Origin: an uncultured Anaerolineales bacterium
GTDB lineage: Bacteria > Planctomycetota > Phycisphaerae > FEN-1346
Reading direction: 5' to 3'
Assembly (NCBI GenBank): GCA_964577175.1
Contig: CAZNYC010000004.1
Coordinates: 15,804-69,232 of the forward strand
Length of the DNA: 53,429 nucleotides
Shown here one piece after another: positions 8,772 to 25,676 of the stretch; within the stretch, counting starts at the first letter, position 1, and every line of letters starts with the position of its first letter. Below the pieces are notes generated by a model, which was given only the letters and a program-made list of their open reading frames with translations, was not told the DNA's origin and did no database searches. The translations under genes and the position numbers were made by a program.

Positions 8772-8775
8772 CACT

Positions 8776-10245
8776 ATGGCCAAACCTCGCATCATCCGAT
8801 TCATCGAGCCGAGCGGACGGCCGGGACGGCCGTTCAACGCCTGGATCCGCAAGTGGCCCCTCCTCGGCCCCATCACCCTGGCGTCGGTACTGGAACGGCG
8901 CGGCTACGATGTGGCCGTCTACAACGAGAACCTCTCCGGCCCGGTCCTCGAGAACCCCCGCATCATGGACGACCTCTGCGCCGCGGACGTCGTCGGCATC
9001 AGCATCATGACGCCGACCGCCAACCGCGGGTACCAGATTGCCGACGCCATCCGCGCCCGGTGCCCGGACGTGACGCTGGCGTTCGGCGGGGTTCACGCGA
9101 CGTTTTGTCCGGAGGAGGCGCAGCAGCACGGGGACGTGGTGGTGCAGGGCGAGGCGGAGTCGGTGATCGAGGATATCGCCGCCGGCCGCATTCGACGAGG
9201 CGTGATTCGCGGCGAGCCGGTGGAAGACCTGGACACGCTGCCCACGCTCAATCACAGCCTGATGCACGACTTCGAAAGCCTGCTGGGCGAGTGCCGGCGC
9301 CGCGAGTACTACGAACTGCCCGTCATGACCTCCCGCGGGTGCCCGTTCGGGTGCGAGTATTGCACCGTGACGCGGATGTTCGGCCGGCGGGTCCGCCGCC
9401 AGTCCGTGGGCAAGGTCCATGCAGACATCCAGAAGCACATGGCCCGCGGGTTCCGGCGGATGTTCTTCTACGACGACAACTTCACGACCGACCGGGCCTG
9501 GAGCCGGGACCTCCTGGAACGCCTCGCGCCGATGGACCTGCGGTTCAACGCCCAGGTCCGGGTCGATTTTCACTGGAAGGACCGCCACCGCCGCCGACGC
9601 GACGACGACCTCCTCCGCGCCATGCGCAAGGCGGGCGGCGACGTCTTCTACATCGGCTACGAGACCATTGACGATGCGACCGCCAAGCAGTGGCATAAGG
9701 GATACCAGGGCGACGGGGCGCTGACGACGCGCCTCATGGAAGACACGCACATCCTCCACGACAACGGGTTCTGGATTCACGGCATGTTCGTCCTGGGCCC
9801 GCAGCACACGGAGCGGACGGCCGACCAGATCGTCCGGTTCGCCCATCAAAGCCGGCTCGAGACGCTTCAGATCAGTTGCCTGACGCCGTTCCCCGGCACG
9901 CCGCTGATGGAGCAGTTCCGGCCGCACCTGGCCTTCACGCAGTTTCCCGCCGACTGGGACTACTACGACGGAACGCACTGCGTGTACGACCACGGCTGGC
10001 TGGGGGTCGAGCGCCTCCAGAACGTGCTGCTCGATGCGCATCGGCGGTTTTACCGGTGGAGCGGCCTGGGCGTGCATCGGCTCCGGAAATGCTTCGAGCA
10101 GAAGATCAGCATGGTTGACAAACTCGCCCTGTTCTGGAAGCACGCCCAAATCGCCCGCAACACCCTGAAGGCCTGGAAGACGGAGACGGCGGCGTACCTG
10201 GAGACGTTCCGCGCGAGGTCGCTGCAGCCGGTGGAATCACGTTGA
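8776..10245 (+). CDS. Cobalamin-binding radical SAM protein
   Basis: LGPITLA, GGVHATFCPEE and GEAE B12-binding region; TSRGCPFGCEYC; FYDDNF; LTPFPGTPL. ATG lies 4 nt after the DAC stop. Confidence 0.9.
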   Translation: MAKPRIIRFIEPSGRPGRPFNAWIRKWPLLGPITLASVLERRGYDVAVYNENLSGPVLENPRIMDDLCAADVVGISIMTPTANRGYQIADAIRARCPDVTLAFGGVHATFCPEEAQQHGDVVVQGEAESVIEDIAAGRIRRGVIRGEPVEDLDTLPTLNHSLMHDFESLLGECRRREYYELPVMTSRGCPFGCEYCTVTRMFGRRVRRQSVGKVHADIQKHMARGFRRMFFYDDNFTTDRAWSRDLLERLAPMDLRFNAQVRVDFHWKDRHRRRRDDDLLRAMRKAGGDVFYIGYETIDDATAKQWHKGYQGDGALTTRLMEDTHILHDNGFWIHGMFVLGPQHTERTADQIVRFAHQSRLETLQISCLTPFPGTPLMEQFRPHLAFTQFPADWDYYDGTHCVYDHGWLGVERLQNVLLDAHRRFYRWSGLGVHRLRKCFEQKISMVDKLALFWKHAQIARNTLKAWKTETAAYLETFRARSLQPVESR

Positions 10246-10307
10246 ACGAGATGGAGTCGCCCTGGGATGTGACAGTGGCTTCCTGAGTGCAAAAGGGGGT
10301 GGCTGGC

Positions 10308-11750
10308 ATGGAGATATCGTCTGGAACCTTCCGCGAACGGTTGGCGTATCTGGCCATGAGTGCGGCCGTCAAGGGCGCGGACTGGGGCCTCCAGGTGCCG
10401 CCCGTCCGCGACTTCTTCCTGGACCGCCTGCTCGAGCGGTTGGACCAGTCGCACGCCGAGTGCGAGGACGACAGCGAGAAACTGCTCCACGACCGGTGGT
10501 TCGCCGGGCATCTGCGGCCGTTTCTGGACCGGCTGCTGGCGGAGCGTCCGGCGGCGGCGCGGGCCATCCTCCGCTTCATCGCCGCCTGGAGCCTGGACGT
10601 CTACCGCCGGACGGAGGCGTATACGGAAGGCGCCGCCACCCCCTGCACGGTCGTCATCGAGCCCACCGACCGCTGCAACCTGAACTGTCCCGGCTGTTAC
10701 GCCAAGAGCAGGCGCGACGGGTGCGACATCCCGCAGGAGCAGATGGAGAGCATCGTCGAACAGGTCATCGACATGGGCGTGACGCTCGTGACGATCTCCG
10801 GCGGCGAGCCGTTCCTGCGCGAGAAGGCCGACCGCACCCTCACGCGCCTGGCCGAGCGGTTCCCCGATCGCGGCTTTCTCGTCTACACAAACGGGACGCT
10901 CATCGACGAGGAGATCGCCGACCGCCTGGCGCGCGTGGGCAACGTCTTCCCGGCCATCAGCGTGGAGGGGTTTGAGCACGAGACCGACGCCCGCCGCGGC
11001 GACGGCATCTACGACAAGGACCGCCGGGCCCGGCGCCTGCTGGCGGAGCGCGGCGTGATGTGCGGGTTCTCCGCCACCGTCACGCGGGAGAACTGCGAGT
11101 CGATCTGCTCCGATGCCTTCATCGAGATGCGCATCGACGAGGGCGACATGTTCGGCTGGTTCTTCCTGCTGATGCCGATCGGCCGGTCGCCGCGCGTCGA
11201 CCTCATGGTCCGGCCTGAGCAGCGGGCCCTGCTGCGCGAGACGATCTACCGCTGGCGCGAGGAGGACCGGCCCATTTTCCTCGGCGACTTCTGGAACGAC
11301 GGGCCCCTGGTTGGCGGCTGCATCGCCGGCGGAAAGTACTATTTCCACATCTACGCCAACGGCGACATCAGCCCCTGCGTCTTCTCGCCGGTAGCCTGCG
11401 GCAACATCTTCGACATCGTCGACGGCCGGAGCGACTACGCCAGCCTGAACGACTTCGTGCAGCGGCACCCGGTGTTCGTCACGTTCCGGGAGGAGCAGAC
11501 GAAGATCACGGACCGCGCGCGGCCGTGCCTGCTGGTGGATCACCCGGACGCGTTCCGGCGCGTGGCGCGGCTCCCCGAGTGCCGCCCCGCCAAGAACATG
11601 GCCGACGGGTACCTGGACGGCGACATCGCGGACCACGTCGACGCGACCGCAAAGGCGTGGGCGGACCTGGTGCCGCACCTGCCGCCGCTGCCCGCCGAGC
11701 GCGAGGCGACCCAGGCGGCGGAGGCGAAGCGGCCGGCGGCGTCCGCCTGA
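10308..11750 (+). CDS. Radical SAM protein with SPASM/twitch-like C-terminus
   Basis: CNLNCPGC, SGGEPF, YTNGTLI, GCIAGGKYYFHIYANGDISPCVF and RPC. Confidence 0.9.
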   Translation: MEISSGTFRERLAYLAMSAAVKGADWGLQVPPVRDFFLDRLLERLDQSHAECEDDSEKLLHDRWFAGHLRPFLDRLLAERPAAARAILRFIAAWSLDVYRRTEAYTEGAATPCTVVIEPTDRCNLNCPGCYAKSRRDGCDIPQEQMESIVEQVIDMGVTLVTISGGEPFLREKADRTLTRLAERFPDRGFLVYTNGTLIDEEIADRLARVGNVFPAISVEGFEHETDARRGDGIYDKDRRARRLLAERGVMCGFSATVTRENCESICSDAFIEMRIDEGDMFGWFFLLMPIGRSPRVDLMVRPEQRALLRETIYRWREEDRPIFLGDFWNDGPLVGGCIAGGKYYFHIYANGDISPCVFSPVACGNIFDIVDGRSDYASLNDFVQRHPVFVTFREEQTKITDRARPCLLVDHPDAFRRVARLPECRPAKNMADGYLDGDIADHVDATAKAWADLVPHLPPLPAEREATQAAEAKRPAASA

Positions 11751-12051: not shown

Positions 12052-12087
12052 GGATTTCCCTGGAAATTCCTTTTGCGTCCGATATAA
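12052..12087 (+). promoter_or_regulatory. Putative -10 box (TATAAT) and upstream imperfect palindrome of the marR gene
   Basis: TATAAT at 12082-12087; near-palindrome GGATTTCC-CT-GGAAATTCC at 12052-12070. Confidence 0.4.
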
Positions 12088-12095
12088 TGTGGCTT

Positions 12096-12722
12096 ATGGC
12101 CTCGGGTGCTATCGAAGAGAAAGCGGCAAGTTTTGCCGTCGCCGAATCGGTGATGCAGGCCCTGCGGCGCATCAGCCGGGCGATTGAACGGCACTCCCAT
12201 TCGCTCGCCAGCCGCTGTGGCCTGACCGTCCCGCAACTGGCCGTCCTCAAGGAACTCGGTGCCGGCGGCGGACGGAGCATCGGCGAACTCACACGGGCCG
12301 TCCACCTGAGCCAGGCGACGGTCACGGGTATCCTGGACCGCCTCCAGCGGCGGGGATTGATCGAACGTCGGCGCGGCGAGGCCGACAAACGGAAGGTCCA
12401 CGTGTGGCTGACCGGGGAAGGCCGCCAGGCGCTGGACCACTCGCCTCCGCTCCTTCATGAGAGCTTTCTGGAGGCGTTCGGGCGGCTCGAGGAGTGGCAG
12501 CAGACGCAGATTCTTTCCTCGCTCCAGCGGGTGGTGGCGATGATGGAGGCGGAACGGATTGAGGCCGCCCCCATGCTGACGCCCGGCCCGATGAACCGGA
12601 CGCCCGAGGAGACACGGTCGTTTCTCGAAGAAACGGAGAGCGGGCATGGGCCCTCGGACGCCCCGGACAGACCGTCTCAGGCGGCGAACGAAACGGGTCA
12701 GCAGGAGGATTCGACCCATTGA
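12096..12722 (+). CDS. MarR family regulator, EctR-like
   Basis: ALRRISRAIERHS..GLTVPQLAVL..LSQATVTGILDRLQRRGLIERRR..DKRKV..LEEWQQTQILSSLQRVVAMM..AAPML resembles MarR regulators found at ectoine/osmolyte loci. Confidence 0.85.
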   Translation: MASGAIEEKAASFAVAESVMQALRRISRAIERHSHSLASRCGLTVPQLAVLKELGAGGGRSIGELTRAVHLSQATVTGILDRLQRRGLIERRRGEADKRKVHVWLTGEGRQALDHSPPLLHESFLEAFGRLEEWQQTQILSSLQRVVAMMEAERIEAAPMLTPGPMNRTPEETRSFLEETESGHGPSDAPDRPSQAANETGQQEDSTH

Positions 12723-12796
12723 ACGCGGGGGGCCGTTGCCCCCTCCGGCCGTAGCGCCATGCCGATGACGGCACCAGCGGTGCGTGGGAGGCGGGC

Positions 12797-13324
12797 ATGC
12801 TTCTGTTTGTCGACGAAAGGGGCACGTTCACGGCGCCATGCCGTGCGAGGTGCTGGCTGGCGTGGCAATATCAGAGGACCAACTATGGAACCTTGTCAAG
12901 GCGGTGCGCTCGGTGGAACGCGAGTACTTCGGTGACTACCTGTGTAATCTGGGAGACCCCGAGCGCAAAGGCAGGAAACTGCTGAAGCGCAAGCGTTTCC
13001 GTAGTGCTGGCCGTTGCGTCGCGACATCGGAAGACGAGTTACCTCAGTTCGCGCATTGTGCCAAAGCCTTTCTTTGTGCATAGCGAGTTGACGACCGGCG
13101 TCTTCCTTGCGGATCTGGCGGCGTATGTGCTTGGGTGGGGGTGGCGATTGGCGAGCATGACTCAGCTGCGGAGGAATGAACTCCAGCCATTCGCGGACAA
13201 ACTCCACGAAATGCAGTTTCAGGGCGAGAAGCCCCGGCGTGATGGGAAAGGCGTGTGGGACTTTTACGGAATTACGTACCTGGACGATCTGCGGGGAAGG
13301 TTTGACCGCGAGGGCGAGTCCTAG
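12797..13324 (+). pseudogene. DUF3800 (RNase H-like fold) pseudogene
   Basis: GGAGG RBS then MLLFVDE(R)G; frameshift near 12830 into EVLAGVAI..LWNL..KGRKLLKRK; second frame change near 13050 (apparent internal deletion) into IVPKPFFVHSELTTGVFLADLAAY. GC is visibly lower than in the flanks. Confidence 0.75.
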
Positions 13325-13347
13325 GCGCGAGGCCGAGTCCCAGGCGC

Positions 13348-13391
13348 AAAAAAATGAAGGCAATGAGCGGCCGAAGCCACCCAAAGCCTCC
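13348..13391 (-). ncRNA. Putative DUF3800-associated small hairpin RNA (or orphan minus-strand terminator)
   Basis: Minus strand reads GGAGGC-UU-UGGGUGGC-UUCG-GCCGCUCA-UU-GCCUUC-A-U7. A TTGACT -35 lies at 13425-13420 with a weak -10 (AATACA) 17 nt away. Confidence 0.55.
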
Positions 13392-13465
13392 GGTGCTGTA
13401 TTGGCCGATTCGGCCCGGAAGTCAAGCGAAAATGCACACAGCGCGAACTTGTTGAAGGACCGACT

Positions 13466-14947
13466 ATGGCCCAGACAACCGACCGACCGAAACACCTGGA
13501 ACCCGGCCTGCCGTCCACGCTCTACCGTCCGCTGACCGAGGCGGATGCCAAGCGCATGGCGGAGGCGGCGCTGGAGGTCCTCGAGAAGTCCGGCGTCGCC
13601 GCCTACTCCGACACCGCCTACCGCACCCTGACCGAGGCGGGCGGCGAGGGCGACGACGAGACCCGTGTCGTCCGCCTGCCCCGCAGCATGGTCGAGGACG
13701 CCGTCGCCTCCAACCCCTCCTCCGTTACGCTCTACAGCCGCGACGGCGAGTTCGATTGCCGGCTCGAAGGCAGCCGCGTCCACTATGGGACGGGGGGCAC
13801 GGCCATCTACGTGCTCGACCCCGAAACGGGCGCGCGCCGGCCCTCGCGCACCGAGGACGTCGTGTTGAACGCGCGGCTCGTGGATACGCTCGAGAACGTG
13901 CACCTCTTCACGATCAACGTGTTCCCGAACGACATCGAGGAGAAGGACCGCATCGACGTGAACCGGTTCTTCCACGCCTTCGACCACACCCGCAAGCACG
14001 TGATGGGCGGCATCTACTCGATGGCCGGATGCAAACGGGTCGTCGAGATGGCCGAGATGATCGCCGGCAGCCCCGAGGCGCTGCGCGACCGGCCGTTCGT
14101 CTCGTTCATCACCCTCATCATCAGCCCGTTCAAGATCGACAAGGACTACGGCGAGATGTGCTGCTACCTCGCGGGCGAGGGGCTGCCCGTGGTCGTGCCG
14201 ACGGAGCCGATCTGCGGCACGACGTCGCCCGTGACGCTGGCGAGCAACGTCCTGACGCACACGGCCGAGACCCTGGCCGGTATCACCCTGGTGCAGTCGG
14301 TCCGCAAAGGCGCGCCGGCCATCTGCGGCAGCGTGGGGTCGATTACGGACCTCAGGACGATGGACCACCTTGGCGGGCCCATCGAACGGGCCATGATCCA
14401 TGCGGCCGTCTCGCAGATGTCGCAATACTTCGACATTCCGCTCTATTCGACGGGCGGCACGAGCGACGCCAAGGAGGTTGACATCCAGGCCGCCTATGAG
14501 AGCGGCATGTCGAGCCTCCTGGTGGCCATGTCCGGGGCCAACTACATCCACGACATCGCCGGCCTCATGGAGGCCGACCTGACGGTCTCGTACGACAAAC
14601 TCGTCATGGACAACGAGATTCTCGGCATGTGCCAGCGGGTCCTGCGGGGCATCGAGGTGGACGACGACCGCCTGGGCACCGACCTCATCATCGAGAAAGG
14701 CCCGGCCCAGGACTTCCTGGCGGAGGAGCACACCATCCGGTACATGCGGAGCGAGTTCTTCCAGCCGCGCCTCGCGAACCGTGAGAAACGCCAGACCTAC
14801 ACGTCCGGGGACTCTGCCCTGGCGCGGGCGAAGGCACAGGTCCAGGAAATCCGCGCCGCCGAGGCCCTGAGCCGCCTCGACGCAGGCGTCCGCGAGCGCA
14901 TCCTCGGGACGTTCGACGAGATCATCCAGCCGGAGGCGACGGCCTGA
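13466..14947 (+). CDS. Trimethylamine methyltransferase (MttB) family protein, non-pyrrolysine
   Basis: ALEVLEKSG, PSSVTLYSRD, GTTSPVTLA, AETLAGITLVQ..GAP, SDAKEVDIQAAYES, SGANYIHD and SYDKLVMDNE. Thr at the Pyl-equivalent site. Confidence 0.92.
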   Translation: MAQTTDRPKHLEPGLPSTLYRPLTEADAKRMAEAALEVLEKSGVAAYSDTAYRTLTEAGGEGDDETRVVRLPRSMVEDAVASNPSSVTLYSRDGEFDCRLEGSRVHYGTGGTAIYVLDPETGARRPSRTEDVVLNARLVDTLENVHLFTINVFPNDIEEKDRIDVNRFFHAFDHTRKHVMGGIYSMAGCKRVVEMAEMIAGSPEALRDRPFVSFITLIISPFKIDKDYGEMCCYLAGEGLPVVVPTEPICGTTSPVTLASNVLTHTAETLAGITLVQSVRKGAPAICGSVGSITDLRTMDHLGGPIERAMIHAAVSQMSQYFDIPLYSTGGTSDAKEVDIQAAYESGMSSLLVAMSGANYIHDIAGLMEADLTVSYDKLVMDNEILGMCQRVLRGIEVDDDRLGTDLIIEKGPAQDFLAEEHTIRYMRSEFFQPRLANREKRQTYTSGDSALARAKAQVQEIRAAEALSRLDAGVRERILGTFDEIIQPEATA

Positions 14948-14966
14948 GCGGTCCGACATGCGTTTT

Positions 14967-15044
14967 GCGCGGCGGGTCTCCGCACCCGCCGCGCAGCCCC
15001 AAGAAGGGCGTTTCGAGCGCGGTGGGTACGGAGACCCACCGCGC
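14967..15044. repeat. REP-like family A inverted doublet (MITE core without TIRs)
   Basis: Copies at 14967-14994 and 15017-15044; the spacer resembles that at 11929-11950. Confidence 0.85.
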
Positions 15045-15096
15045 CAATACGGGCGCGGCCGCATCACGCCCATCGCCGCACTGAAAGGAGATTGCG

Positions 15097-16611
15097 TTGG
15101 CCAAGACACAGCGACAAGGCGTCCTCGTCAGCCGGCCGCGCGAGCGGCTGTCGGAGGATCAGGTCCGCCTCATTGACGGCACCAGCCGTGATCTGCTCCA
15201 GGACCCCGGCCTCCTGTGCTACAACCGCGAGGCCGCGGACCTGTTCGAGAAGGCCGGCGCCGAGGTCGAATCCGGCGACGACTATGCCCACGTGCGGGTC
15301 CCGCCCGAGATGGTCGACCGGGCCGTCGAGTCCGCCCCGTCCACCATCACCCTCGGGGCGCGGAACCCCGACAACCGCCTGATCCTCGACGCCACCGAGC
15401 CGCGCGCCCGGTTCGTGAGCGGTTCCGAGACCAACATCTGGCTCGACGTGGCGTACGACGGGGCGGGGCCGCCCACGCTTACGCGCGAAGACGGCTCCAT
15501 CGAGCGGCTCTGCCGCTCCGCCCACCTGTGCGACCAACTGGAGCACCTCGATTCGTTCATCCGCAACGTCAACATCCAGGACGAGGCCGTCACGGACGCC
15601 AACAAGGACGTCAACAAGTTCCTGGCGAGCCTGAACAACATCACGAAGCACGTACAGGCCGGGCTGACGACGCTGGAGTCGTTGGACGACGTGGTCCGCC
15701 TCGGCCAGATCGTGGCCGGGGGCGAGGAGGCGTTCGCGGCCGAGCCCGTCGTCTCGTTCATCGCGTGCGTCATCAAGAGCCCGCTCCAGGTGGTGGACGA
15801 CACGGCCGCCAAGGTCATCGCGGTGGCCCGGCGCAAGGTGCCGATCGTCATCTCGAGTTGCCCGATGGCCGGCGCGACCGCCCCGTTCGACGAGTACGGT
15901 ATGGTGGCCCAGATCAACGCCGAACTCCTCGCCGGCGTCACGCTGACGCAACTCGCGCAGGAAGGCGCCCCCGTCCTGTACGGCAGCGTGCCGGTGCGGA
16001 CGCGTCTCGACAACTTGAACGACATGTACGGCGCCCCGGAGTTCAACCATTACAACATCGATTGCGCCCAGATGGCCCGCTTCTACCGCCTGCCGTGCTA
16101 CTCCACCTCCGGCGTGGGCGATACGAGCGAGCCGGGCATCCAGGCCACCGCCGAGAAGATGCTCACCTACATGTCCGTCCCGTTCGCGGGCCCGCAGTAC
16201 ATCCACTATGCGTTCGGGCTGCTCGAGCGGACGAACGTCTTCTGCCCGGAGCAGGCGGTGCTCGACAACGCGCACATCGGCATGGTGAAGTTCGCGATGG
16301 CCGGCCCGGACGGCGTGGCGGCGGACCGCCGCGACGAGATCCTCGCCACCGCCCGCGAGATCATGGAGACCGACCACAAGACCTACATCTACCACCTGCC
16401 GATGCCCACGCGCGAGTCCGTCTACGTGGCCTACCCGATGGAGTCCGACGACGGCGATGCCCTCCGCGCCGCCCACGAGGCATACCACGAGATCCTGGCC
16501 CGCCCGCGCAACCCCCTGCCGGACGACGTCCGGGACGCCATCCGCAAACACGTGCCCGGTGTGCTCGACCCGGCGCTGGCAAGTGCACCCAAAGCAAAGG
16601 AGACATCATGA
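15097..16611 (+). CDS. Trimethylamine methyltransferase (MttB) family protein, non-pyrrolysine (second, divergent)
   Basis: APSTITLGARNP, KSPLQ, PMAGATAP, NAELLAGVTLTQL..GAPVLYG, QMARFYRLP and EQAVLDN. TTG start behind AGGAG. Confidence 0.9.
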   Translation: MAKTQRQGVLVSRPRERLSEDQVRLIDGTSRDLLQDPGLLCYNREAADLFEKAGAEVESGDDYAHVRVPPEMVDRAVESAPSTITLGARNPDNRLILDATEPRARFVSGSETNIWLDVAYDGAGPPTLTREDGSIERLCRSAHLCDQLEHLDSFIRNVNIQDEAVTDANKDVNKFLASLNNITKHVQAGLTTLESLDDVVRLGQIVAGGEEAFAAEPVVSFIACVIKSPLQVVDDTAAKVIAVARRKVPIVISSCPMAGATAPFDEYGMVAQINAELLAGVTLTQLAQEGAPVLYGSVPVRTRLDNLNDMYGAPEFNHYNIDCAQMARFYRLPCYSTSGVGDTSEPGIQATAEKMLTYMSVPFAGPQYIHYAFGLLERTNVFCPEQAVLDNAHIGMVKFAMAGPDGVAADRRDEILATAREIMETDHKTYIYHLPMPTRESVYVAYPMESDDGDALRAAHEAYHEILARPRNPLPDDVRDAIRKHVPGVLDPALASAPKAKETS

Positions 16612-17948
16612 CTATTACGAGAACCGAACGAAGCGGCGTGTCGGAAGACGACCCCCTCGCGCCCGAAGAGCAGATGGAAGCCTATGCCGAGGCCGTCAGC
16701 AGCGGCCTGTACGCCAAGCAGTCCGGCCTGGTCGGCAAGTACGACAACGTCCGCCGATTCTGGGAGGACGAGATCACCCGCATCTACCTGCGGCCTCACC
16801 TGAAGCGGCTCATCGACCGCAGCCAGTCGCTGATGCGGCGGGTGAGGGTGCTCGACCTCGGCTGCGGTTCCGCCGACGGGTACGAACTGCTCGCCGGTGT
16901 CCGCCAGCGGGACTCCGACATTCACTCCAGCGCGGTCAAACTCCTCCAGGACGAGATCCTTGGGGAGTACAAGGGCCTGGACCTTAGCGCCGAACTGCTC
17001 GACCAGGCCCGGAGCATCTACGGCAACCGGCCCAAAATGGTCTTCGATCAGGGCGACTTCACCCAGGGGCTGCCCCTCGGCGAGGACGCGCGGCCGTACG
17101 ACCTCTACTTCACCTCCTACGGCACGATGTCGCATCATAATGACGACGCGACGGCCGTCCGCCTGCTGGCCGACATCGCCCGCCGATGCGAGCACTACTG
17201 CATCATCGTCTGCGACTGGCTCGGCCGCTACTCCTACGAATGGCAGAGCCTTTGGACGAACGAACCCGAGACGTTCCAGAATCTCGATTACGTCGTCTCC
17301 TACATCTACTCGCCGGAAGAGCGCGAGCGGATGCGCGACCAACTCCAACACCTGACGCTCCGCCTCATGAGCCGCCAGGAGGCCGAGAACATCGTCCAGC
17401 GGGCATCGGAGGAGGCGGGCGTCGAGATCCGCCCGCTCCAGTTCTTCGACCGCTCCGTCCTCACGGGCCGCCACCTCGACACCGGCGAGTACAACGCCCA
17501 CGCCCAGCCGCTGCGCCAGGCCGTCAACTCCCTGCACGAGACCGGCGTCCGGACGGAATTGGAGTCGCTCATCTTCAACTACGTGCCGAAGCAGAACTTC
17601 GCCTTCCTCAACGACTACTTCGAGCATCTCCAGATGGCCTGGAACACGCTCATCGAGTACGTGGCGTGCCTGCTGGACGCCTACGACGAGACCGAACGCG
17701 CCTTCATCCCCGGGGCGCCGGAGGTGCCGGCCACGTACCCGGCGCCGCTGCGTGACATGATGGCCCGTATGCGCGTCGTCGTCGATGGCATCGGCTGGCT
17801 GCATTACGGCCTGCCGCGAGAGAACATCATTGAACCCCAACTCGGCTACGCCCTGCGATACCTCATCATGAACCTGCAGCAGGGGCAGGGGTGCGGCCAC
17901 GGACTGGTCGGTATCCTGGAGGTCGACAGGGACGGCCGGCGACAGTAA
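16608..17948 (+). CDS. Class I SAM-dependent methyltransferase (446 aa)
   Basis: VLDLGCGSADG motif I, YKGLDLSAELLDQAR, QGDF and YDLYF. ATGA overlap with the upstream mttB stop. Confidence 0.85.
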   Translation: MTITRTERSGVSEDDPLAPEEQMEAYAEAVSSGLYAKQSGLVGKYDNVRRFWEDEITRIYLRPHLKRLIDRSQSLMRRVRVLDLGCGSADGYELLAGVRQRDSDIHSSAVKLLQDEILGEYKGLDLSAELLDQARSIYGNRPKMVFDQGDFTQGLPLGEDARPYDLYFTSYGTMSHHNDDATAVRLLADIARRCEHYCIIVCDWLGRYSYEWQSLWTNEPETFQNLDYVVSYIYSPEERERMRDQLQHLTLRLMSRQEAENIVQRASEEAGVEIRPLQFFDRSVLTGRHLDTGEYNAHAQPLRQAVNSLHETGVRTELESLIFNYVPKQNFAFLNDYFEHLQMAWNTLIEYVACLLDAYDETERAFIPGAPEVPATYPAPLRDMMARMRVVVDGIGWLHYGLPRENIIEPQLGYALRYLIMNLQQGQGCGHGLVGILEVDRDGRRQ

Positions 17949-18149
17949 GCCGCCGACGCCGCGCAGGAATGACGGGGACGTTTTCGGCGCGAGTGGAGGC
18001 CTGTGTTCGCCGGCCCGCTTGCGGGCCGCGCGCCTTTGCGTTTCGAGGGGGGCAGGAGACGGCCCCCCCGGCACTCGCTTGGAGCGCGGTCGGGCGAGAC
18101 ACGGTCCCGGACCTGATCGGGCGCCAGGGCCGCTGGCAGGAAAGGCACA

Positions 18150-18773
18150 ATGGAAGCGTTCTCCGGGTCGCTGGTCTCGTTCCTGGCGATACTGAACCCG
18201 TTTGCCCTGTGTCTGTACCTGGAGGAGGTGATGGCGAAGTTCGAACGCAAGGGCTTCATCCGCATCCTGGGCAGCGCCTGCGCGTTCTCGCTCGCCGTCT
18301 TCCTGCTCTGCGCCTACGGGGGGGAGCCGTTTCTGCGACGGGTGCTGCGCGTCAAGCCGGAGGCCATGCGCGTCTTCGGCGGCCTGATCTTTCTCATCGT
18401 CGGATACAACTATGCCGTCAAGGGATACCGGACGGCCGAACTGCTTCGCGGGTCGCTGGAGGATCTGCCCGCCGCCATCGCCATGCCGCTCATGATCGGC
18501 GCCGGCACGGTCACCCAGTCGATCCTGATCGGTAAGGCCCTGCCCATGTGGGAGTGGGCGCTGGTGCTGGCCGGTGGGGTGGCGGTGGCGTTTGTCATTG
18601 TCGTGGCGTTCAAGGTGATTCGCGACCACGTGCGGGCACGCCGCGAGGCCCTGTTCGACCGCTACGTCGCCGTTCTGGCCCGCGTCAACGGGCTGGTTAT
18701 CGGTGCAATCTCGGTCAATATGATCGTCACGGGGCTTCACGCCCTGTGGGAGACCAGTGACGGAATGATCTGA
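18150..18773 (+). CDS. MarC family membrane protein
   Basis: AILNPF, FGGLIF, AMPLMIGAGT and RVNGLVIGAISVNMIVTG; about six TM helices. Confidence 0.9.
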   Translation: MEAFSGSLVSFLAILNPFALCLYLEEVMAKFERKGFIRILGSACAFSLAVFLLCAYGGEPFLRRVLRVKPEAMRVFGGLIFLIVGYNYAVKGYRTAELLRGSLEDLPAAIAMPLMIGAGTVTQSILIGKALPMWEWALVLAGGVAVAFVIVVAFKVIRDHVRARREALFDRYVAVLARVNGLVIGAISVNMIVTGLHALWETSDGMI

Positions 18774-19002
18774 CAACCGCACGTCGCCGGTGCCGGCCGC
18801 GCAAGACGTATCCGCATCGGCCGTTGCCGGGACGGCGGTGGAGGCTGCGCGGCCTCCGATACACGCAAGGAAGGACGCAGCCGGCCCGGAGGCCGGGCAG
18901 GCTGCCATAGACCGCGGACCGTGCCGGCGGGGCACGGACCGGTCGCGACCCGTACCAGGAAGCCGCCCCCCGCCCGCACGGAACCGAAAGGAGACGTCAA
19001 CC

Positions 19003-20463
19003 ATGGCCGGCATTGCCGGAGTGTTCGCCACCGAGCCCCAGGACGCCGTCGTCCGCCGCATGCTGGACGCCCTGCGCCACCGCGGCCCGGACACCATGTG
19101 TCTGTTCGAGAGCGCCCACCGGGCGGGAGGCGTGTGCGCGGCCGACCTGTCGGCGGAGCGCGGCGTCGGCTTCGCCCAGCGCGAAGGCGTGACCGTCCTG
19201 TTCGACGGCGACATCTATAACGAGCGGCCCGAAGGGCAGTCCGACGCCGACGTCGTCCTGGGCCTGTACGGCGAGTACGGCCAGGCGTTTCCGGCGTACC
19301 TGGAGGGCGTCTTCGCCTGCGCCGTCTACGACGGCGAAGACCTCCTCCTCGCCCGCGACGCGGTGGGTGTGCGGCCGGTGTATTGCGGCACGCTGAAGGA
19401 GGGGGGCAAGTGCTTCGCCTCCGAGATGAAGGCCCTGGTCGGCGTCGCCGACGACATCTGGGAACTGCCGCCGTCCACGGTCTACTCGGCCTCCTCCAGC
19501 GTATCGCGGTATCGCCCCCGGCTGCCGGACGTGCTCGTCCCGACGGACTTCAACGAGGCGAAGCGGCTGGTGCGGACCCTCCTGACCGACGCCGTCCGAC
19601 GCCGCATGGACGACGGCGCCGCCGGCGCCTGCCTCCTGAGCGGCGGGCTCGATTCCAGCATTATCACGTGCGTGGCGCACGAGTTCGCCCCGGACCTGGC
19701 GGCCGTCACGGTCGGCGTCGAGGGGGCGCCGGACCTGGAGAACGCCCGTCTCGTGGCCGAAAGCCTCGGCATCGAGCACCGCGTCCACCTCTACACGGAA
19801 GAAGAGGCGGAAGCCCTCGTGGCGCAGGCGGTGGTGGCCCTCGAATCGTTCGACGAGGACTGCGTCAGCGGCGCCATCGCCAACATGATGGCCTCGGGCG
19901 TCGCCTCCGGGTTCACGAACTGCATCCTCAGCGGCGAGGGCGGCGACGAACTCTTCGGCGGCTATCACCTGCTGAAGGACCTCGATTCGGGCCTCGAGCG
20001 CCTTGAAATGATGGAGAACCTCATCGACGTGGCGTACAACACCGCCGTCCAGCGCCTGGACCGCGCGATGCTCGCCAACCGGATCCATTACCGCACGCCG
20101 TTCATCGATTCGCAGGTGATGGCCCTGGCGCTGCAACTGCCCGTGCGGTGGAAGATTCACGAGGTCGAGGGCGAACCCGTCGAGAAATACATCCTCCGCG
20201 AGGCGTTCCGCGACGTGTTGCCCGACAAGATCTACAAGCGCCGCAAACTCCGCTTCTCGGCCGGCACCGGGACCGACGGCTTCATGGACCGTGTCGCCGA
20301 GGGCCAGGACCAGGCCGCCGACTACTCCGAGGCGACCCAGCACACCCCCGAGGGCTACACGCTGAACTCGCCCAAGGAACTCTGGTATTACCGCCTGTTC
20401 AAGGAACACTTCCCCGAGCCGGCGTTCGAGCGGCTCGTCGGACGGTGGGACCCCGAAAAATAA
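19003..20463 (+). CDS. Asparagine synthetase-like ATP-dependent amide ligase, glutaminase site degenerate
   Basis: Starts MAGIAG (no Cys nucleophile); DGDIYN replaces NGEIYN; SGGLDSS, SGEGGDELFGGY and EKYILREAF intact. Confidence 0.88.
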   Translation: MAGIAGVFATEPQDAVVRRMLDALRHRGPDTMCLFESAHRAGGVCAADLSAERGVGFAQREGVTVLFDGDIYNERPEGQSDADVVLGLYGEYGQAFPAYLEGVFACAVYDGEDLLLARDAVGVRPVYCGTLKEGGKCFASEMKALVGVADDIWELPPSTVYSASSSVSRYRPRLPDVLVPTDFNEAKRLVRTLLTDAVRRRMDDGAAGACLLSGGLDSSIITCVAHEFAPDLAAVTVGVEGAPDLENARLVAESLGIEHRVHLYTEEEAEALVAQAVVALESFDEDCVSGAIANMMASGVASGFTNCILSGEGGDELFGGYHLLKDLDSGLERLEMMENLIDVAYNTAVQRLDRAMLANRIHYRTPFIDSQVMALALQLPVRWKIHEVEGEPVEKYILREAFRDVLPDKIYKRRKLRFSAGTGTDGFMDRVAEGQDQAADYSEATQHTPEGYTLNSPKELWYYRLFKEHFPEPAFERLVGRWDPEK

Positions 20464-20599
20464 CGTAACCGTACAGAATGCCGCGCGGTGGGCCGGGAGG
20501 CCCACCGCGCTCGCCGGCCGAGGTGCCGGACATCCCTCCAACGCATGGCCACGCACGCCTCCAGGGACACGCCCTCTCCGAGAGAGAGGAGCGCAACCC

Positions 20600-22120
20600 A
20601 TGTGTGGGATCTGTGGCGTATGGGGCAGGACCGGCCTGGAACCCGTCCGGCAGATGATGGGCCGCATGACCCATCGCGGACCGGACGCCGAGGGCATCTA
20701 CGAGGGCGACGCCGGCGTCCTGGGCCATCGGCGGCTCTCCATCATGGACCCGGCGGGCGGGAACCAGCCGATCCGCTCGTCCGACGGCCGCCGGGTCATC
20801 GTCGCCAATGGCGAGATTTACAACTTTCCCGTCCTTCGCGAGGGCCTGGTTCCCCCGCACCGTTTCCGGACGCGCAGCGATACCGAATCCGCCCTCCATC
20901 TGTACGAGGACTTGGCGGAGGAGGCCGCCGGCCGGCTCGACGGCATGTACGCCTTCGCCATCGCCGACGGACCGGACCTCTTCGTCGCCCGCGACCCCGT
21001 GGGCATCAAGCCGCTTTACGTGGGCCGGCGCGGCGGCGACCTGGCGTTCGCCTCCGAACTCAAGGCCCTTGCCGGCGTGGCGGACGAGGTGGAGGAGTTT
21101 CCGCCCGGCACGTTCTACCATACGCGGTTGGGCCGCCGGCGGTTCGGCGCCCTGGCGCAGCGGCAGCCGGAAGCCCTGACCCTCGACGACCATGCCGCAC
21201 GCCTTCGCGAAGGGGTCCGGCGCGCCGTCGTCAAACGCCTCATGAGCGACGTGCCGGTCGGGGCGTTCCTCAGCGGCGGGCTCGACTCCAGCATCATCGC
21301 GGCCCTGGCGAGACGGCACGTGGGGCGCCTGCACACGTTCTCGGTCGGCATCGAGGGCAGCCGCGACCTCGAGGCCGCACGCCGTGTCTCCCGCCACCTC
21401 GGCACCGAGCACCACGAGTACGTCTTCACGGCTGCCGAGGTGCTCGAGCACCTGCCGGAGATTCTCTTCTACCTGGAATCGTTCGACCAGGACCTGGTGC
21501 GCAGCGCCATCCCGTGCTACTTCACCTCGCGCCTCGCGGCCGAGCACGTCAAGGTGATCCTGACCGGGGAGGGGGCCGACGAACTCTTCGCCGGGTACCG
21601 CTACTACACCGGCGTGGCGGAACCCGGCGCCCTGCAGGCCGAACTCCACCGGTCCGTGGCGGCGCTGCACAACGTGAACCTCCAGCGGGTGGACCGGCTC
21701 ACGATGGCCCATTCCATCGAGGGCCGCGTGCCGTTCCTCGACGTCGAGATGATCGACCTCGCGCAGCGGATTCCGGCGGACCTGAAACTCCGCCGCGACG
21801 GCGGCCGGACGGTCGAGAAGTGGATCCTCCGCAAGGCGTTCGAGGACCTCCTGCCCCACGACATCGTCTGGCGCCGCAAGGAGCAGTTCGACGAGGGCAC
21901 CGGCACGGTGGAGGTTCTGTCGGCCGGCCTCGACCGGTTCATGCGGCGCGAGGACGCCCCGGCGTACGTCTCGGCCCACGCCGACGCCCACCTGCGGTCC
22001 GCGGAGGAGGCGGTCTTTCACCGCCTGCTGACCGAGGCGTACGAGGACCCGGACCCCGTCCTGCAGAACGTGGCCCGCTGGGCCGACCGCCCGGACCACG
22101 GGCGGCAAGGGGACGGGTGA
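20600..22120 (+). CDS. asnB: Asparagine synthase (glutamine-hydrolysing) family protein
   Basis: MCGICG, HRGPD, GHRRLSIMD, NGEIYN, SDTE, LSGGLDSS, TGEGADELFAGY and RVPFLD. Confidence 0.9.
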   Translation: MCGICGVWGRTGLEPVRQMMGRMTHRGPDAEGIYEGDAGVLGHRRLSIMDPAGGNQPIRSSDGRRVIVANGEIYNFPVLREGLVPPHRFRTRSDTESALHLYEDLAEEAAGRLDGMYAFAIADGPDLFVARDPVGIKPLYVGRRGGDLAFASELKALAGVADEVEEFPPGTFYHTRLGRRRFGALAQRQPEALTLDDHAARLREGVRRAVVKRLMSDVPVGAFLSGGLDSSIIAALARRHVGRLHTFSVGIEGSRDLEAARRVSRHLGTEHHEYVFTAAEVLEHLPEILFYLESFDQDLVRSAIPCYFTSRLAAEHVKVILTGEGADELFAGYRYYTGVAEPGALQAELHRSVAALHNVNLQRVDRLTMAHSIEGRVPFLDVEMIDLAQRIPADLKLRRDGGRTVEKWILRKAFEDLLPHDIVWRRKEQFDEGTGTVEVLSAGLDRFMRREDAPAYVSAHADAHLRSAEEAVFHRLLTEAYEDPDPVLQNVARWADRPDHGRQGDG

Positions 22121-22314: not shown

Positions 22315-23127
22315 CTACTCGAACTGGAACTCCTCTTCGCGGTCGCGCATGCTGTCGCGGAGGCGTTCGATGACGGCCGCGTGAATCTGGCAGATGCGGG
22401 TCTCGGAGAGGTCGAGGGCGGCGGCGATTTCCTTCATCGTCATCTCTTCGTAGTAATAGAGGACCAGAACCAGCCGTTCCTTCCTCGACAGGTGCCGCGC
22501 GAGCATGACCTTGAGATCCTCGCGCAGCGCGGCCCGGTCGGGCCCCGTGTCGTCTTCGGGGGCGATCAGGTCGCCCCAGGTGGCCTCGTGCCCTTCCTGT
22601 CCCCCGGGCACGGTGTTGTCGAGACTGGCCGTCTGAATGGGCTCGGCCCGGCAGGCGAAATGGTGGTAGTCGTCGGGGGCCATGTCGAGATGATCGGCCA
22701 TCTCGGCGTCGGTAGGCTGGCGGCCGAGGTGGCTGGCCAGGGTCTGCCGGGCCGAATCGAGTTGCCGGTGTCGGCGGCGGACGCTTCGCGGCACCCAGTC
22801 GGACCGCCGGAGCGAATCGAGAATGGCGCCGTGCACGCGAGGGGCGGCATACGTCTCGAATTTCACGCCGCGGTCCGGATCGAACGATTCGACCGCCCGC
22901 TGCAGACCCAGGATGCCCGCCGCGTACACGTCGTCCGGATCGACTTCGGCCGGCAGGCGGGCGCTGGCGCGGTCGGCCCGGTACTTGACGACCGGCAGAT
23001 AGTATTCCATGAGCAGGTTCCGCAGGTCGTCGGACGGTTGTGCGCCGTACGCGTCCCAGAGCGAGTCCACTTCTTCGTCCGAGAGGCGTTGGCCGGCGGC
23101 GGGGGCGGCGTATGAATGAGCGATCAT
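22315..23127 (-). CDS. fliA: FliA/WhiG family RNA polymerase sigma-28 factor
   Basis: RNLLMEYYLPVVKY, FDPDRGVKFETYA, GAILDSLRRSDWVPRSVR and LYYYEEMTMKEIA..LSETRICQIH. Confidence 0.9.
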   Translation of the reverse strand: MIAHSYAAPAAGQRLSDEEVDSLWDAYGAQPSDDLRNLLMEYYLPVVKYRADRASARLPAEVDPDDVYAAGILGLQRAVESFDPDRGVKFETYAAPRVHGAILDSLRRSDWVPRSVRRRHRQLDSARQTLASHLGRQPTDAEMADHLDMAPDDYHHFACRAEPIQTASLDNTVPGGQEGHEATWGDLIAPEDDTGPDRAALREDLKVMLARHLSRKERLVLVLYYYEEMTMKEIAAALDLSETRICQIHAAVIERLRDSMRDREEEFQFE

Positions 23128-23216
23128 CGTCTTGTCCCTTTCCTGCGCTTTGCAGCGTCGCGGCGCCGCGGACGGCGCCGTCGGCGGCGGGCAGCGCCCG
23201 GCCGCATGGTTTCGCA

Positions 23217-24866
23217 TTACAGCCGCGCCACCGCGGGCGACGCCTCGGTCCCGGCCGTGCGGTCGGCCTCGGCATCGAGGGCCCGGCGGACGGTCTCGGT
23301 CAGGGTCCGGATGTTGAACGGTTTGCTCAGCCAGTCGGCGTCCGGCGGAATCAGGCCCCGCCGCACCAGGAAACACCGCGGGTAGCCCGAGGTGTACATG
23401 ACCCGCAGGTCGGGCCGGCTGCGGCGAAGACGGTGGGCGACTTCGGGCCCCCGCCGGCCGGGCATGACCGTGTCGGCGATGAGCAGATCGATGCGACCCG
23501 TGTATCCGGCCGCCACCTTGGCGGCGTCGTTGCCGTCGCAGGCGGTCAGCACGGTATACCCCTGTTCCTGGAGGAGATCGGCGAGGAGTCGGCGGACTTC
23601 GGTGTCGTCTTCGGCGATCAGGATCGTCTCGGAGCCGCCGGCGCCCGGTCGTTCGCAAGCCGGGCCGGTCTCGTCTACGTGGGGCTCCTGCTCGGGAGCG
23701 GGGCACTCGGGGAAGTACAGTTTGAACGTCGTCCCGTGCCCCGGTTCGCTATACACGTACACGTGTCCGCGGCACTGTTTGACGAAACCGTAGACCATGG
23801 CCAGGCCCAGGCCGGTGCCTTTGCCCTCGGGCTTGGTCGTGAAGAACGGGTCGAAGATGCGCGCCTGCGTCTCGGGGGCCATGCCGTGGCCGGTGTCGGT
23901 CACGGTGAGGACGACGTGGGAGCCGGTCGAGGCGCCGGGATGGCGGGAGGCGTAGTCGGCATCGAGGTCGACGGTGCTGGTCGCGAGGACGATTTCGCCG
24001 CCGTCCGCCATGGCGTCGCGGGCGTTGATGGCCAGGTTCATGAGCGATTGTTCCAGCAGCGCCCGGTCGACCATGGCGAACCGGGGCGCGTCGCTGGTGT
24101 GAACGCGGAGACGGATATCCTCGCCGAGTGTCCGGCGGAGCGTCTTGACGAGGTCGCGGACGACCTCGCCCACCTGCACGGGTTTGCGATCGATCGTCTG
24201 CCGGCGGCTGAAGGCGAGGACGCGGCCGGCCAGGGCGGCGGACCGGTCGGCCGCCTGGTGGATCTTGTCGACGTACGGCCGGCGGTCGTCGTCGGCCGGC
24301 AGTTCCTGGCCCAGACGGTCGCAGTAGCCCTGGATGACCATCAACTGGTTGTTGAAGTCATGGGCCATGCCGCCCGCCAACCGGCCCACCGCCTCCATCT
24401 TCTGGGCCTGCCGCAGTTGCGAGTGCAGGTCCGAGACGTGGGAGCAGTCCTTGACGACGAAGACGGCGCGCGTCACGCGCCCCTCGTCGTCGGTGTGCGG
24501 GACGCCGCTCGTGGTGACCGTGGTTTCACCGCCGCCGGCGGGGACGGTGCCGGGCCGGTCGAAGACGGCCTCGCCCCGGCGCAGCACCTCCGCGAAGACG
24601 GTGTCCTCGGGCGGGACGGGTTGCGAGGTGCCGTCGCACAGGTGCAAGTCCGCGATGGTGCAGGTCCCGGTGTCGAGGCGATCGGCATCGAGGCCGAACA
24701 GGTCGGCCGCCCGGCGGTTGACGGCGGTCAGGCGGCCGTCAGCGTCGGTGAGCAGGACGCCCGATCCTGTGGCTTCCATCAGTTCCCGGACGAGGTCGTC
24801 CGGACGGGGCGAGCGGGTTGTCAGTCGCTCCCCGTTACACGACTCCTTCGTGATAGCGGTACGCAT
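23217..24866 (-). CDS. Hybrid PAS-HisKA-HATPase-REC sensor kinase (CckA-like)
   Basis: [54 protein letters not shown], and C-terminal [13 protein letters not shown]. Confidence 0.92.
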
Positions 24867-24871
24867 GAATG

Positions 24872-24913
24872 GACCCCCTTGGTCCGTCCCCCTTGGTGCG
24901 TCCCCCTTGGTAT
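24872..24913 (-). repeat. Three tandem 14-bp units (ACCAAGGGGG(A/T)C on minus strand) over the RBS of the hybrid kinase
   Basis: Plus strand gacccccttggtcc / gtcccccttggtgc / gtcccccttggtat, ending 5 nt from the ATG at 24866. Confidence 0.8.
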
Positions 24914-25161
24914 AGAGAATGAGCCGCCGGCCGGCCGGTGATTCGATGCAGCCGGTCGGGGCTCGCCCGCCGGGCGTCCGGCCGCAAACGGACGGGCCGG
25001 GTGCCGACGGGTGGTTCAACATGATCGCGGCGCCCGAGGGCGGACACCACCGGAGCAGGGTGGACCGCGCCCGGAGCGGGACGCCGGATCGGATCGACGG
25101 GTTCGGTTGCGCGTCGCACGAGCGTTGCCCTGTTTGACGTGTCGGTTCAGCGCGAAGAAAT

Positions 25162-25455
25162 GCTTCCCAGCGCACACCAAGTATCGCCTTTTTCGTAAGT
25201 TGGGGCTATGGGGGGAATTACGGATTCCGGGCGGCACGCAGGCTGATTCCTGAGGGAAAGAGGAAGGAAGGAAAGCCGTCGCCGGCAAGGGGGGCGGCGC
25301 GGTCCCCTGGAAAAGGGAGCGGGCGACCCTGGGGGGAGAAGCCGCCCGCATCCCAGCGCAAGAGCCTTTTCCCTATATCATGGATGAAGAGCCGGTTGTT
25401 CTGCTATTAGTATCGGATACCGAGGGGGGCGGTGTCCATCAGGTATATTACTGAT
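25162..25455 (-). promoter_or_regulatory. Two similar promoter-like modules (18-bp box + CGATAC + TGCGCTGGGAWGC)
   Basis: Boxes ATGGGGGGAATTACGGAT (25208-25225) and ATCAGGTATATTACTGAT (25438-25455) start 27-28 nt from GTATCG (25181, 25410). GCWTCCCAGCGCA at 25162 and 25348. Confidence 0.4.
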
Positions 25456-25676
25456 ATGCCGAGCCCGTGCGGATGAGTTTCGCCTCGGAAATCCCACGCC
25501 AGCGGCCTGGTAGATTTGCGGTCGCGGCCGTGCGCGCTTCCTGCGGGGGTACACGTACGGCCAGCCTTGCTCCTGCAACGCTGCTTCCCGCCGCGTGTGT
25601 GTGGCCCGGTTGGCTTGTCCAACCGGGACGATATCCCTTCCCGGCGGGACGAGGCGGCCGGGCCACACGCCGGAAC

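Follow-up and report, generated by a model that had tools for sequence, protein, structure and literature searches.

The stretch of DNA analysed here, referred to as the window, covers 53,429 nucleotides of contig CAZNYC010000004.1, from an uncultured bacterium (Planctomycetota; Phycisphaerae) whose genome assembly holds 4.28 Mb on 256 contigs and is 91% complete. The window has a G+C content (GC) of 69% and carries, at positions 12087-22120, seven genes co-oriented on the + strand. In order, they encode a MarR-family regulator, two proteins of the MttB superfamily (MttB1 and MttB2), a class I S-adenosylmethionine (SAM) methyltransferase, a MarC-family membrane protein and two proteins of the asparagine synthetase family (AsnB1 and AsnB2). 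We placed the genes by frame-specific third-position GC (GC3) together with scans of the Pfam and NCBIfam family libraries (Table 1). An earlier reading made from the letters alone (the sequence-only reading) had described this same set, namely mttB1, mttB2, a SAM methyltransferase gene coupled by an ATGA, marC, an asnB lacking its cysteine and an intact asnB, co-oriented downstream of a MarR regulator, and every one of these elements was found. The array is one copy of a widespread, seemingly undescribed module present in many anaerobic bacteria, and the module probably makes or turns over a methylated salt-protectant.

The coupling between the genes for MttB2 and the methyltransferase is close: the TGA stop of the first and the ATG start of the second overlap as ATGA. 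This is the sole overlap in an array that is not tightly packed, the other intergenic gaps measuring 150, 200, 230 and 137 bp. A consensus scan of the + strand found no terminator-like site between 12722 and 22120, and its total counts were those of chance (5 found, 4.9 expected). A sigma-70-family gene, convergent with AsnB2, closes the array.

Table 1. Features of the window: the array and the sigma-70-family gene that closes it, followed by the flanking genes mentioned in the text.
Feature	Position	Strand	Support or remark
MarR-family regulator, 211 aa	12087..12722	+	Pfam MarR, E 6.9e-15
Lower-GC insert	12723..13465		GC 0.59-0.60, without recognisable gene
MttB1, MttB-superfamily TIM-barrel methyltransferase, 493 aa	13466..14947	+	PF06253, E 5.7e-91
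MttB2, divergent MttB paralogue, 504 aa	15097..16611	+	PF06253, E 4.5e-57
Class I SAM methyltransferase, 446 aa	16608..17948	+	Methyltransf_25 (weak), E 1.9e-6
MarC/NAAT-family membrane protein, 207 aa	18150..18773	+	PF01914, E 3.9e-14
AsnB1, asparagine-synthetase-like, 486 aa	19003..20463	+	Asn_synthase, E 1.5e-53
AsnB2, glutamine-dependent asparagine-synthetase type, 506 aa	20600..22120	+	NCBIfam PRK09431
Sigma-70-family gene	22315-23706	-	
Protein of 1130 aa	3162-6554	-	hydrazine-synthase-alpha middle domain (PF18582), E 1.6e-21
NHL/SGL-repeat protein	6214-7380		
DacZ-like diadenylate cyclase	7692-8771	+	Pfam DAC, E 4e-20; DacZ_P sensor domain
B12-binding radical SAM protein	8518-10245	+	
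Radical SAM/SPASM-like protein	10287-11750	+	
PAS-rich hybrid histidine kinases and LuxR-type response regulator	23217-31291	-	

We compared the genome of the window with a set of 40 relatives, and took as the main set of loci the best 80 of 275 stretches encoding the methyltransferase, with one genome per species. The methyltransferase is about 60-88% identical across the 80 loci. Six of the 40 relatives carry it at 65-88% identity, plus one further genome (G006) at 29%; the order MttB1-MttB2-methyltransferase is kept in 6/6 of the relatives that bear it, and in four of the six AsnB1 and AsnB2 then follow. Judged by record titles, the 80 loci span at least eight phyla, with Phycisphaerae, Brocadiia, Pirellulales, Thermoguttaceae and Planctomycetota among those named, and also Spirochaetota, Latescibacterota, Hydrogenedentota, Kiritimatiellae, Lentisphaerae, Victivallales, Fibrobacterota and others. 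An even sample of 300 other genomes of the phylum contained the module in 14 cases. MttB2 lies directly 5' of the methyltransferase in 77 of the 80 loci (full-length in 72), and in the remaining three the contig ends no more than 215 bp upstream of the methyltransferase. MttB1 was present in 61 loci, and five loci with at least 5 kb of upstream sequence are without it. Because of the near-complete adjacency, the three ended contigs and the variable presence of MttB1, we regard MttB2 and the methyltransferase as the invariant core of the module, and because the arrangement is conserved across loci we take it to be more than chance. The sequence-only reading had named the lack of conserved co-localisation as an outcome that would count against it; over the 80 loci co-localisation is extensive, and that objection falls away.

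A search of full-text literature (supplementary gene-neighbourhood tables lay outside it) returned no paper describing a pairing of MttB genes with either this methyltransferase or asparagine synthase, in agreement with the earlier suggestion that the gene set is undescribed. In one listing of papers, those that name MttB did not name asparagine synthase. Many of the related records are metagenome-assembled genomes with isolate names that suggest sediment, lake or mat samples. The metagenomes in which the window DNA was found are all labelled microbial mat; one of them may be its source, and one other run of the same study contains 0.87 of its words.

The methyltransferase represents a new family within the class I SAM methyltransferases. 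Its assignment to that class comes from the Methyltransf_25 model (28.9 bits, with a cut-off of 27), from the similarity of its modelled core to many SAM methyltransferases and from residues D83, G85, G87, D125 and D150, which we take to be those of the SAM motifs. In 63 methyltransferase sequences, some with as little as 24% identity, these residues are invariant or nearly so. When 1.84 billion representatives were searched exhaustively, 299 relatives were found at E <= 1e-3, and in the protein atlas we found only unnamed class I methyltransferase clusters. A structural model computed from an alignment of the 63 diverse sequences reached a predicted local distance difference test score (pLDDT) of 92.4 and a predicted TM-score (pTM) of 0.91, and replaced an earlier model from 20 close sequences with a pLDDT of 60. 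Foldseek matched the Rossmann core alone, with a query TM-score (TMq) of at most 0.33, and found no solved counterpart for about 200 residues at the C-terminus. Its best matches are N-methyltransferases of small molecules (TylM1, CcbJ, CalS10, DesVI, GNMT and a putative SDMT, 2o57), which is a hint only, because all of them fall within one order of magnitude of E-value. A family-profile search of solved structures gave nothing at E <= 0.01, and two chance-level matches (E 0.027 and 0.036). We dropped a possible lead to CpcM-like asparagine methyltransferases, as no named relative appeared in the clusters read or in NCBIfam. The protein shares with the glycine/sarcosine and sarcosine/dimethylglycine N-methyltransferases (GSMT/SDMT) of glycine betaine synthesis the class I SAM core, two structural matches (GNMT and the putative SDMT) and an osmolyte context. 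It differs from them, GSMT and SDMT being about 270-290 aa long, in its low TMq, in its extra C-terminal residues and in being always paired with MttB2 in the main loci.

The 299 relatives of the methyltransferase include natural fusion proteins. AsnB is joined to the methyltransferase in two full-length cases (P0159 and P0158, the latter starting MCGI) and in one fragment (P0245); they were found together with a fragment joining a B12-binding domain to the methyltransferase (P0171) and a fusion of a universal stress protein (Usp) with the methyltransferase (P0185). A metagenome scan with P0158 was dominated by generic AsnB, and homologues of the methyltransferase, MttB and MarC were absent from all 80 of its loci. 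Four divergent loci (L195, L196, L198 and L199) lie outside the 80 main loci; in L198 and L199 a distant subfamily of the methyltransferase, 31-32% identical, has as its neighbours a MarR gene, an AsnB2-like gene and a transporter of the OpuA type, and there is no MttB within 12 kb. A predicted complex of MttB2 and the methyltransferase scored 0.00, a 'no answer' that speaks neither for nor against binding.

To survey the neighbours of the core, all open reading frames (ORFs) of the 80 loci were clustered and the representatives scanned with the family libraries. In 52 of the 80 loci the methyltransferase is immediately followed by an OpuA-type betaine ATP-binding cassette (ABC) transporter, for which we counted the ATPase (a permease and the OpuAC binding protein lie alongside); this bears out the proposed tie to compatible-solute biology. 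An AsnB-type gene is present in 36 loci and a ProA gene with a 470-aa GCS2-like carboxylate-amine ligase in 25. The two, both ATP-dependent modules that handle nitrogen, are mutually exclusive: no locus has both, and the 19 with neither are mostly on short contigs. ProA passes its NCBIfam equivalog cut-off (530 vs 289), and no AsnB2 orthologue was found in any of five ProA-type genomes searched (E <= 1e-60). The place given to AsnB by the sequence-only reading thus holds for the 36 loci, but AsnB is not obligatory, the ProA/GCS2-like pair being there in 25 others. The remaining neighbours are MarC (14/80), MarR in either orientation (13/80, and also flanking the divergent loci L195, L196 and L198), a DUF362 protein with two 4Fe-4S motifs (12/80), MscS (4/80) and a corrinoid protein directly after MttB1 (2/80, L043 and L063). 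In these last two loci (L043 2305-8424 and L063 4624-8402) the interval from MttB1 to MttB2 contains the corrinoid protein together with a membrane protein of the VTT/DedA type and a DUF362/4Fe-4S protein, to which L043 adds an NMO-type flavoprotein and a DUF547 protein.

The two AsnB proteins of the window differ in kind. The AsnB1 frame opens with GTG at 18790, but homology to AsnB begins at residue 72. The best start is the ATG at 19003, after an AAGGAG site, and because this start gives the N-terminus MAGIAG, the nucleophilic Cys is replaced by Ala. With this Ala and 308.6 bits against a cut-off of 499, AsnB1 falls outside asparagine synthetase B, whereas AsnB2, with the N-terminus MCGICG, passes the NCBIfam model 'asparagine synthase B' (540.5 bits vs 499). 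Among solved structures AsnB1 matches E. coli AsnB (1ct9) at E 5.5e-48 and beta-lactam synthetase (1jgt) at 9.8e-22, and both AsnB1 and AsnB2 keep the SGGLDS and GEGxDE stretches, presumably the named AsnB motifs. They depart from E. coli AsnB in the Ala of the AsnB1 type and in the linkage and fusion to the methyltransferase. Neither belongs with AsnO of N-acetylglutaminylglutamine amide (NAGGN) synthesis, the TIGR03104 model giving 125 bits for AsnB1 and 271 for AsnB2 against a cut-off of 570. In all, three AsnB subfamilies are recruited beside the core. At the Cys position the AsnB1 type has Ala in 17/17 and the AsnB2 type Cys in 14/14; in a third type, about 35% identical, the residue there is Ser in 11 members and Ala in one.

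Among the 40 relatives, AsnB2 orthologues (65-91% identity) are found in exactly the six that have the orthologous methyltransferase, in two of them on a different contig from the module. The search of the other 34, G006 included, gave one partial match of 48% (G013). For AsnB1, orthologues are confined to the module-bearing relatives and were found in five of these six. The relatives are not independent, so this co-occurrence is a pattern and not a statistic, yet because AsnB2 is absent from the 34 relatives, save for the partial match, we do not regard it as the housekeeping enzyme of the clade. This restriction to module-bearing relatives, and the AsnB-methyltransferase fusions, uphold the earlier claim that AsnB belongs with the set. 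Four further long AsnB-family genes (open frames of 668-944 aa) are present elsewhere in the genome, three on contig C23 and one on C78.

These data bear on a very unlikely explanation in which MttB2 and the methyltransferase form a unit and AsnB1, AsnB2 and MarC act independently of it, in asparagine synthesis and amino-acid transport, sharing with it a salt-related selection or regulation. The equivalog score of AsnB2, the gaps of 137-230 bp, the 25 loci of ProA type, the lack of an AsnB2 orthologue in all five tested ProA-type genomes and the absence of group-specific residues in the core would all suit such an arrangement. It is countered by the AsnB-methyltransferase fusions in three representative clusters, by the recruitment of three AsnB subfamilies beside the core in 36 loci, and by the absence of AsnB2, bar the one partial match, from relatives without the orthologous methyltransferase. 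Because the fusions exist, we consider it unlikely that AsnB and MarC are unrelated neighbours.

We turned to MttB1 and MttB2 for clues to the substrate. Both belong to the superfamily by their PF06253 scores (305 and 194 bits against a cut-off of 25), MttB2 matching profile positions 29-423 of 500 only, and they are about 30% identical to each other. Neither is of the pyrrolysine type: TIGR02369 gives 396 bits for MttB1 and 257 for MttB2, below its cut-off of 525, both frames are open without in-frame stop, and T332 of MttB1 and V340 of MttB2 stand at the X position of 7xcl (aligned by hand). The best solved relative of MttB1 is MtgB of D. hafniense (2qne/9yce; E 2.5e-59), in which glycine betaine is bound by the cation-pi residues Y97 and F356 and by R312 and H348 at the carboxylate, according to the excerpted text of the report (PMC13080624). 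Read by hand from pairwise alignments to 9yce/2qne, the positions of Y97, R312, H348 and F356 are occupied by G111 (uncertain), Y327, D363 and D371 in MttB1 and by S, Y335, Y371 and T379 in MttB2. All 16 MttB1 orthologues compared have Y327, D363 and D371. Because the four binding residues of MtgB are not kept, neither protein is an MtgB orthologue. A third MttB gene in the genome (G000:C20:20967-22352; L097 7788-9380) is closer to the profile than either (PF06253, E 2e-114); it stands alone, beside an opposite-strand ribonucleotide reductase gene.

The module shares its MttB-family TIM barrels with the characterised systems of the superfamily (MtgB/C/A of D. hafniense, MthB/C/A/K of Eubacterium limosum and MtgBCD of Ruegeria pomeroyi), and also the betaine-type ABC transporter next door. 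Unlike them, it has a pair of different MttB paralogues, a SAM methyltransferase that is obligatory and belongs to a new family, and AsnB or ProA/GCS2 partners. A corrinoid protein, a pterin-binding methyltransferase and the activase RACo are encoded in cis in divergent loci and in trans in the genome of the window. In L195 the order is MarR, ProA, GCS2-like ligase, DUF362-ferredoxin, MttB1, pterin-binding methyltransferase, MttB2, corrinoid protein, methyltransferase and ABC transporter. L196 begins with MarR, ABC transporter, AsnB of the third type, pterin-binding methyltransferase and MttB2, and continues with a corrinoid protein, the methyltransferase, another corrinoid protein, the RACo activase, an uncharacterised gene and MttB1. 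The core is thus linked to a corrinoid protein, methyl-tetrahydrofolate (methyl-THF) and an activase. None of the 80 main loci contains a pterin-binding or RACo homologue, and 78 of them, the window locus included, lack any corrinoid, MT2 (pterin-binding methyltransferase) or activase gene. The window genome encodes at other sites a single corrinoid protein of 211 aa (contig C64), RACo in two genes, a small pterin-binding protein and the third MttB, and by analogy MttB1 and MttB2 may use these trans-encoded corrinoid parts. We rejected the corrinoid protein as a module-specific component, since orthologues are present in 41/41 genomes searched, with or without the module. This distribution fits a shared housekeeping part, as in the Ruegeria model in the excerpted text of PMC12478193. 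The corrinoid orthologues of two same-genus genomes (G022:C16:37015-37644 and G025:C113:78148-78777) have one in-frame TGA each, which could be selenocysteine, a sequencing error or a mark of a pseudogene.

The fusion P0171 and the flanking corrinoid genes also suggested the methyltransferase as a reactivation module like that of MetH. We ranked this low in view of the RACo gene in the L196 operon, beside which SAM-based reactivation is not needed, and of the AsnB fusions. The likeness to MetH is one of analogy only: two substrate barrels, a B12 module (as in the P0171 fusion) and a SAM-binding module are present in both, but here MttB-type proteins supply the barrels, and a Rossmann methyltransferase, not the MetH activation domain, serves as the SAM module.

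A catabolic explanation, which we judge unlikely, fits all known MttB enzymes and the architecture of L195 and L196. A quaternary amine imported by the OpuA-type transporter or MarC would be demethylated by MttB1 and MttB2, its methyl groups passing to the corrinoid protein and then to tetrahydrofolate (THF), and the SAM methyltransferase and AsnB or GCS2 would modify the substrate beforehand or process the product. All characterised members of the family are catabolic in the excerpted texts of three reports (PMC13080624, PMC12155760, PMC12478193), and L195 and L196 repeat the combination of MT1 (substrate methyltransferase), corrinoid protein and pterin-binding MT2 in one operon, with RACo as well in L196. 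The importer adjoins the core in 52 loci. An ATP-dependent activation before demethylation has a precedent in the choline kinase MthK, which makes phosphocholine for MthB (excerpted text of PMC12155760), and the Asp of MttB1 at the carboxylate-binding position of MtgB would suit an amidated and not a free carboxylate. It is hard to see what a SAM-consuming methylation, encoded in 100% of the testable loci, would do in a demethylation route, and the AsnB-methyltransferase fusions and the MttB-less modules of methyltransferase, AsnB and ABC transporter work without a demethylase. The ProA, Usp and MscS partners point to stress protection and not to substrate use, and neither MttB1 nor MttB2 keeps the cation-pi residues expected for a quaternary amine.

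It is quite unlikely, in our assessment, that the module both makes and recycles a solute, the SAM methyltransferase (with AsnB) building it and MttB1 and MttB2, with the housekeeping corrinoid protein, returning its methyl groups to the THF/methionine pool once the solute has served its purpose. Every enzyme would then keep its known chemistry, the MttB-less modules show that the methyltransferase/AsnB pair can stand alone, and the universal occurrence of the corrinoid orthologue is what a shared part of a split methionine synthase would lead one to expect (excerpted text of PMC12478193). Against such a scheme, MttB2 and the methyltransferase are translationally coupled and adjacent throughout, which implies that opposing activities would be co-expressed in a SAM-costing futile cycle. 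Nor does the scheme explain why there should be two different MttB proteins.

We read the module as a system of corrinoid- and SAM-dependent N-methyl transfer that would act on a betaine-type compatible solute. The mechanism we prefer, tentatively, is a hybrid biosynthesis by MttB1, MttB2 and the SAM enzyme; the sequence-only reading had also considered a biosynthetic use of MttB, towards a putative N-methylated amino-acid amide or lactam. In this hybrid route methyl-THF would charge the corrinoid protein, MttB1 and MttB2 would use the resulting methyl-corrinoid in the first N-methylations of an amine, and the thermodynamically hard last quaternisation would fall to the SAM methyltransferase. 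AsnB1 and AsnB2 would supply or amidate the amino-acid skeleton, and MarC, or OpuA in other genomes, would move the solute. The fuller version, in which two methyl groups of methyl-THF are transferred through the corrinoid protein before the SAM enzyme acts last, on an AsnB-amidated amino-acid skeleton of an undescribed solute, is somewhat unlikely in all its detail. The hybrid route would account for the constant presence of the SAM enzyme and for the two MttB proteins (three methylations, three enzymes), as well as for the lost cation-pi residues and the anabolic partners. The AsnB and Usp fusions, the L198 and L199 modules, ProA, MscS and the co-occurrence of AsnB2 speak for an anabolic or osmotic context.

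Several points weigh against this preference. The characterised MttB-family enzymes demethylate quaternary amines and none is known to methylate an amine, as far as the excerpted texts of the reports go (PMC13080624, PMC12155760, PMC12478193). The biosynthetic direction would accordingly be without biochemical precedent, and the thermodynamic argument for quaternisation by SAM is our own proposal. An importer with MttB, corrinoid protein, Pterin_bind protein and RACo is the exact architecture of catabolic systems. The MttB-less loci L198 and L199 imply that the methyltransferase can perhaps do without MttB, the window locus is without an OpuA-type transporter, the genome's only OpuAC gene being on another contig, and AsnB2, which passes the ordinary asparagine synthetase B model, may make plain asparagine. 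Alignments of the methyltransferase, MttB2 and MttB1 contain 0 group-specific positions between AsnB-type and ProA-type loci; therefore the core probably acts on the same compound in both settings and the partner modules probably do not dictate its substrate, which weakens the idea that AsnB supplies the skeleton. The comparison with MtgB, finally, depends on alignments read by hand in which the position of Y97 is uncertain.

The present analysis adds several elements to the picture of the module: the exclusivity of AsnB and ProA/GCS2, the fusions, the versions with corrinoid, pterin and RACo genes in cis, the MttB-less modules and the comparison of MtgB residues. The module ties MttB-type corrinoid chemistry to a new family of SAM methyltransferase and to amide-forming enzymes in at least eight phyla, which suggests that a methylated solute, or a route of methyl flow, has so far gone unrecognised. 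In saline and anoxic habitats betaines are central currencies, serving as osmolytes, methyl donors and methane precursors. If the module is biosynthetic, the view of non-pyrrolysine MttB proteins as demethylases only would change and betaine production would be cheaper; the hybrid route, if true, would cut the cost of osmolytes in energy-poor anaerobes of saline sediments. If it is catabolic, a new substrate class and a new activation step would be at hand. In either direction, reading MttB counts in metagenomes as 'trimethylamine (TMA) or glycine betaine use' would be wrong for a sizeable group.

Two details of the array did not fit the sequence-only reading so well. The MarR regulator had been called EctR-like, a label that finds no support: only generic MarR models match it, no EctR model is among its Pfam or NCBIfam matches, and the NCBIfam matches are all far below cut-off (the best, Saro_0803, at 51 against 200 bits). 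The window ORFs scanned with the family libraries include no ect genes. For MarC likewise, the NCBIfam models of the NAAT family transporters match below cut-off. The array had also been described as interrupted only by a decayed insert of lower GC. The low GC of the insert (0.59-0.60 against about 0.69) was borne out, but the genes are not otherwise contiguous, given the gaps of 137-230 bp. This insert separates MarR from MttB1 by 743 bp, occurs once in the genome and is absent from two same-genus loci (L010 and L016), in which MarR and MttB1 are about 50 bp apart by tblastn coordinates. Its ORFs at 12784-13083, 13004-13324 and 13176-13535 (99-119 aa) have no Pfam match.

Two radical SAM genes, one of the B12-binding kind and one SPASM-like, lie upstream of MarR in the same orientation. 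A radical SAM gene 35-37% identical is found upstream of MttB2 in four spirochaete loci (L055, L059, L079 and L080), and a B12-radical SAM gene 59% identical in L027. We rejected the two upstream genes as members of the pathway, their synteny being kept within the genus only (L010, L011 and L016). Further upstream is the DacZ-like diadenylate cyclase, which reaches 116 bits on the NCBIfam DacZ model, below its cut-off. A homologue 74% identical lies upstream in the same-genus locus L011, and none was found in L010. Cyclic di-AMP is an osmoregulatory messenger in other bacteria, and a link between the cyclase and the module is conceivable. The protein with the hydrazine-synthase-alpha middle domain adjoins the NHL/SGL-repeat protein at the upstream end, and downstream of the array the opposite strand encodes the run of PAS-rich hybrid histidine kinases and a LuxR-type response regulator.

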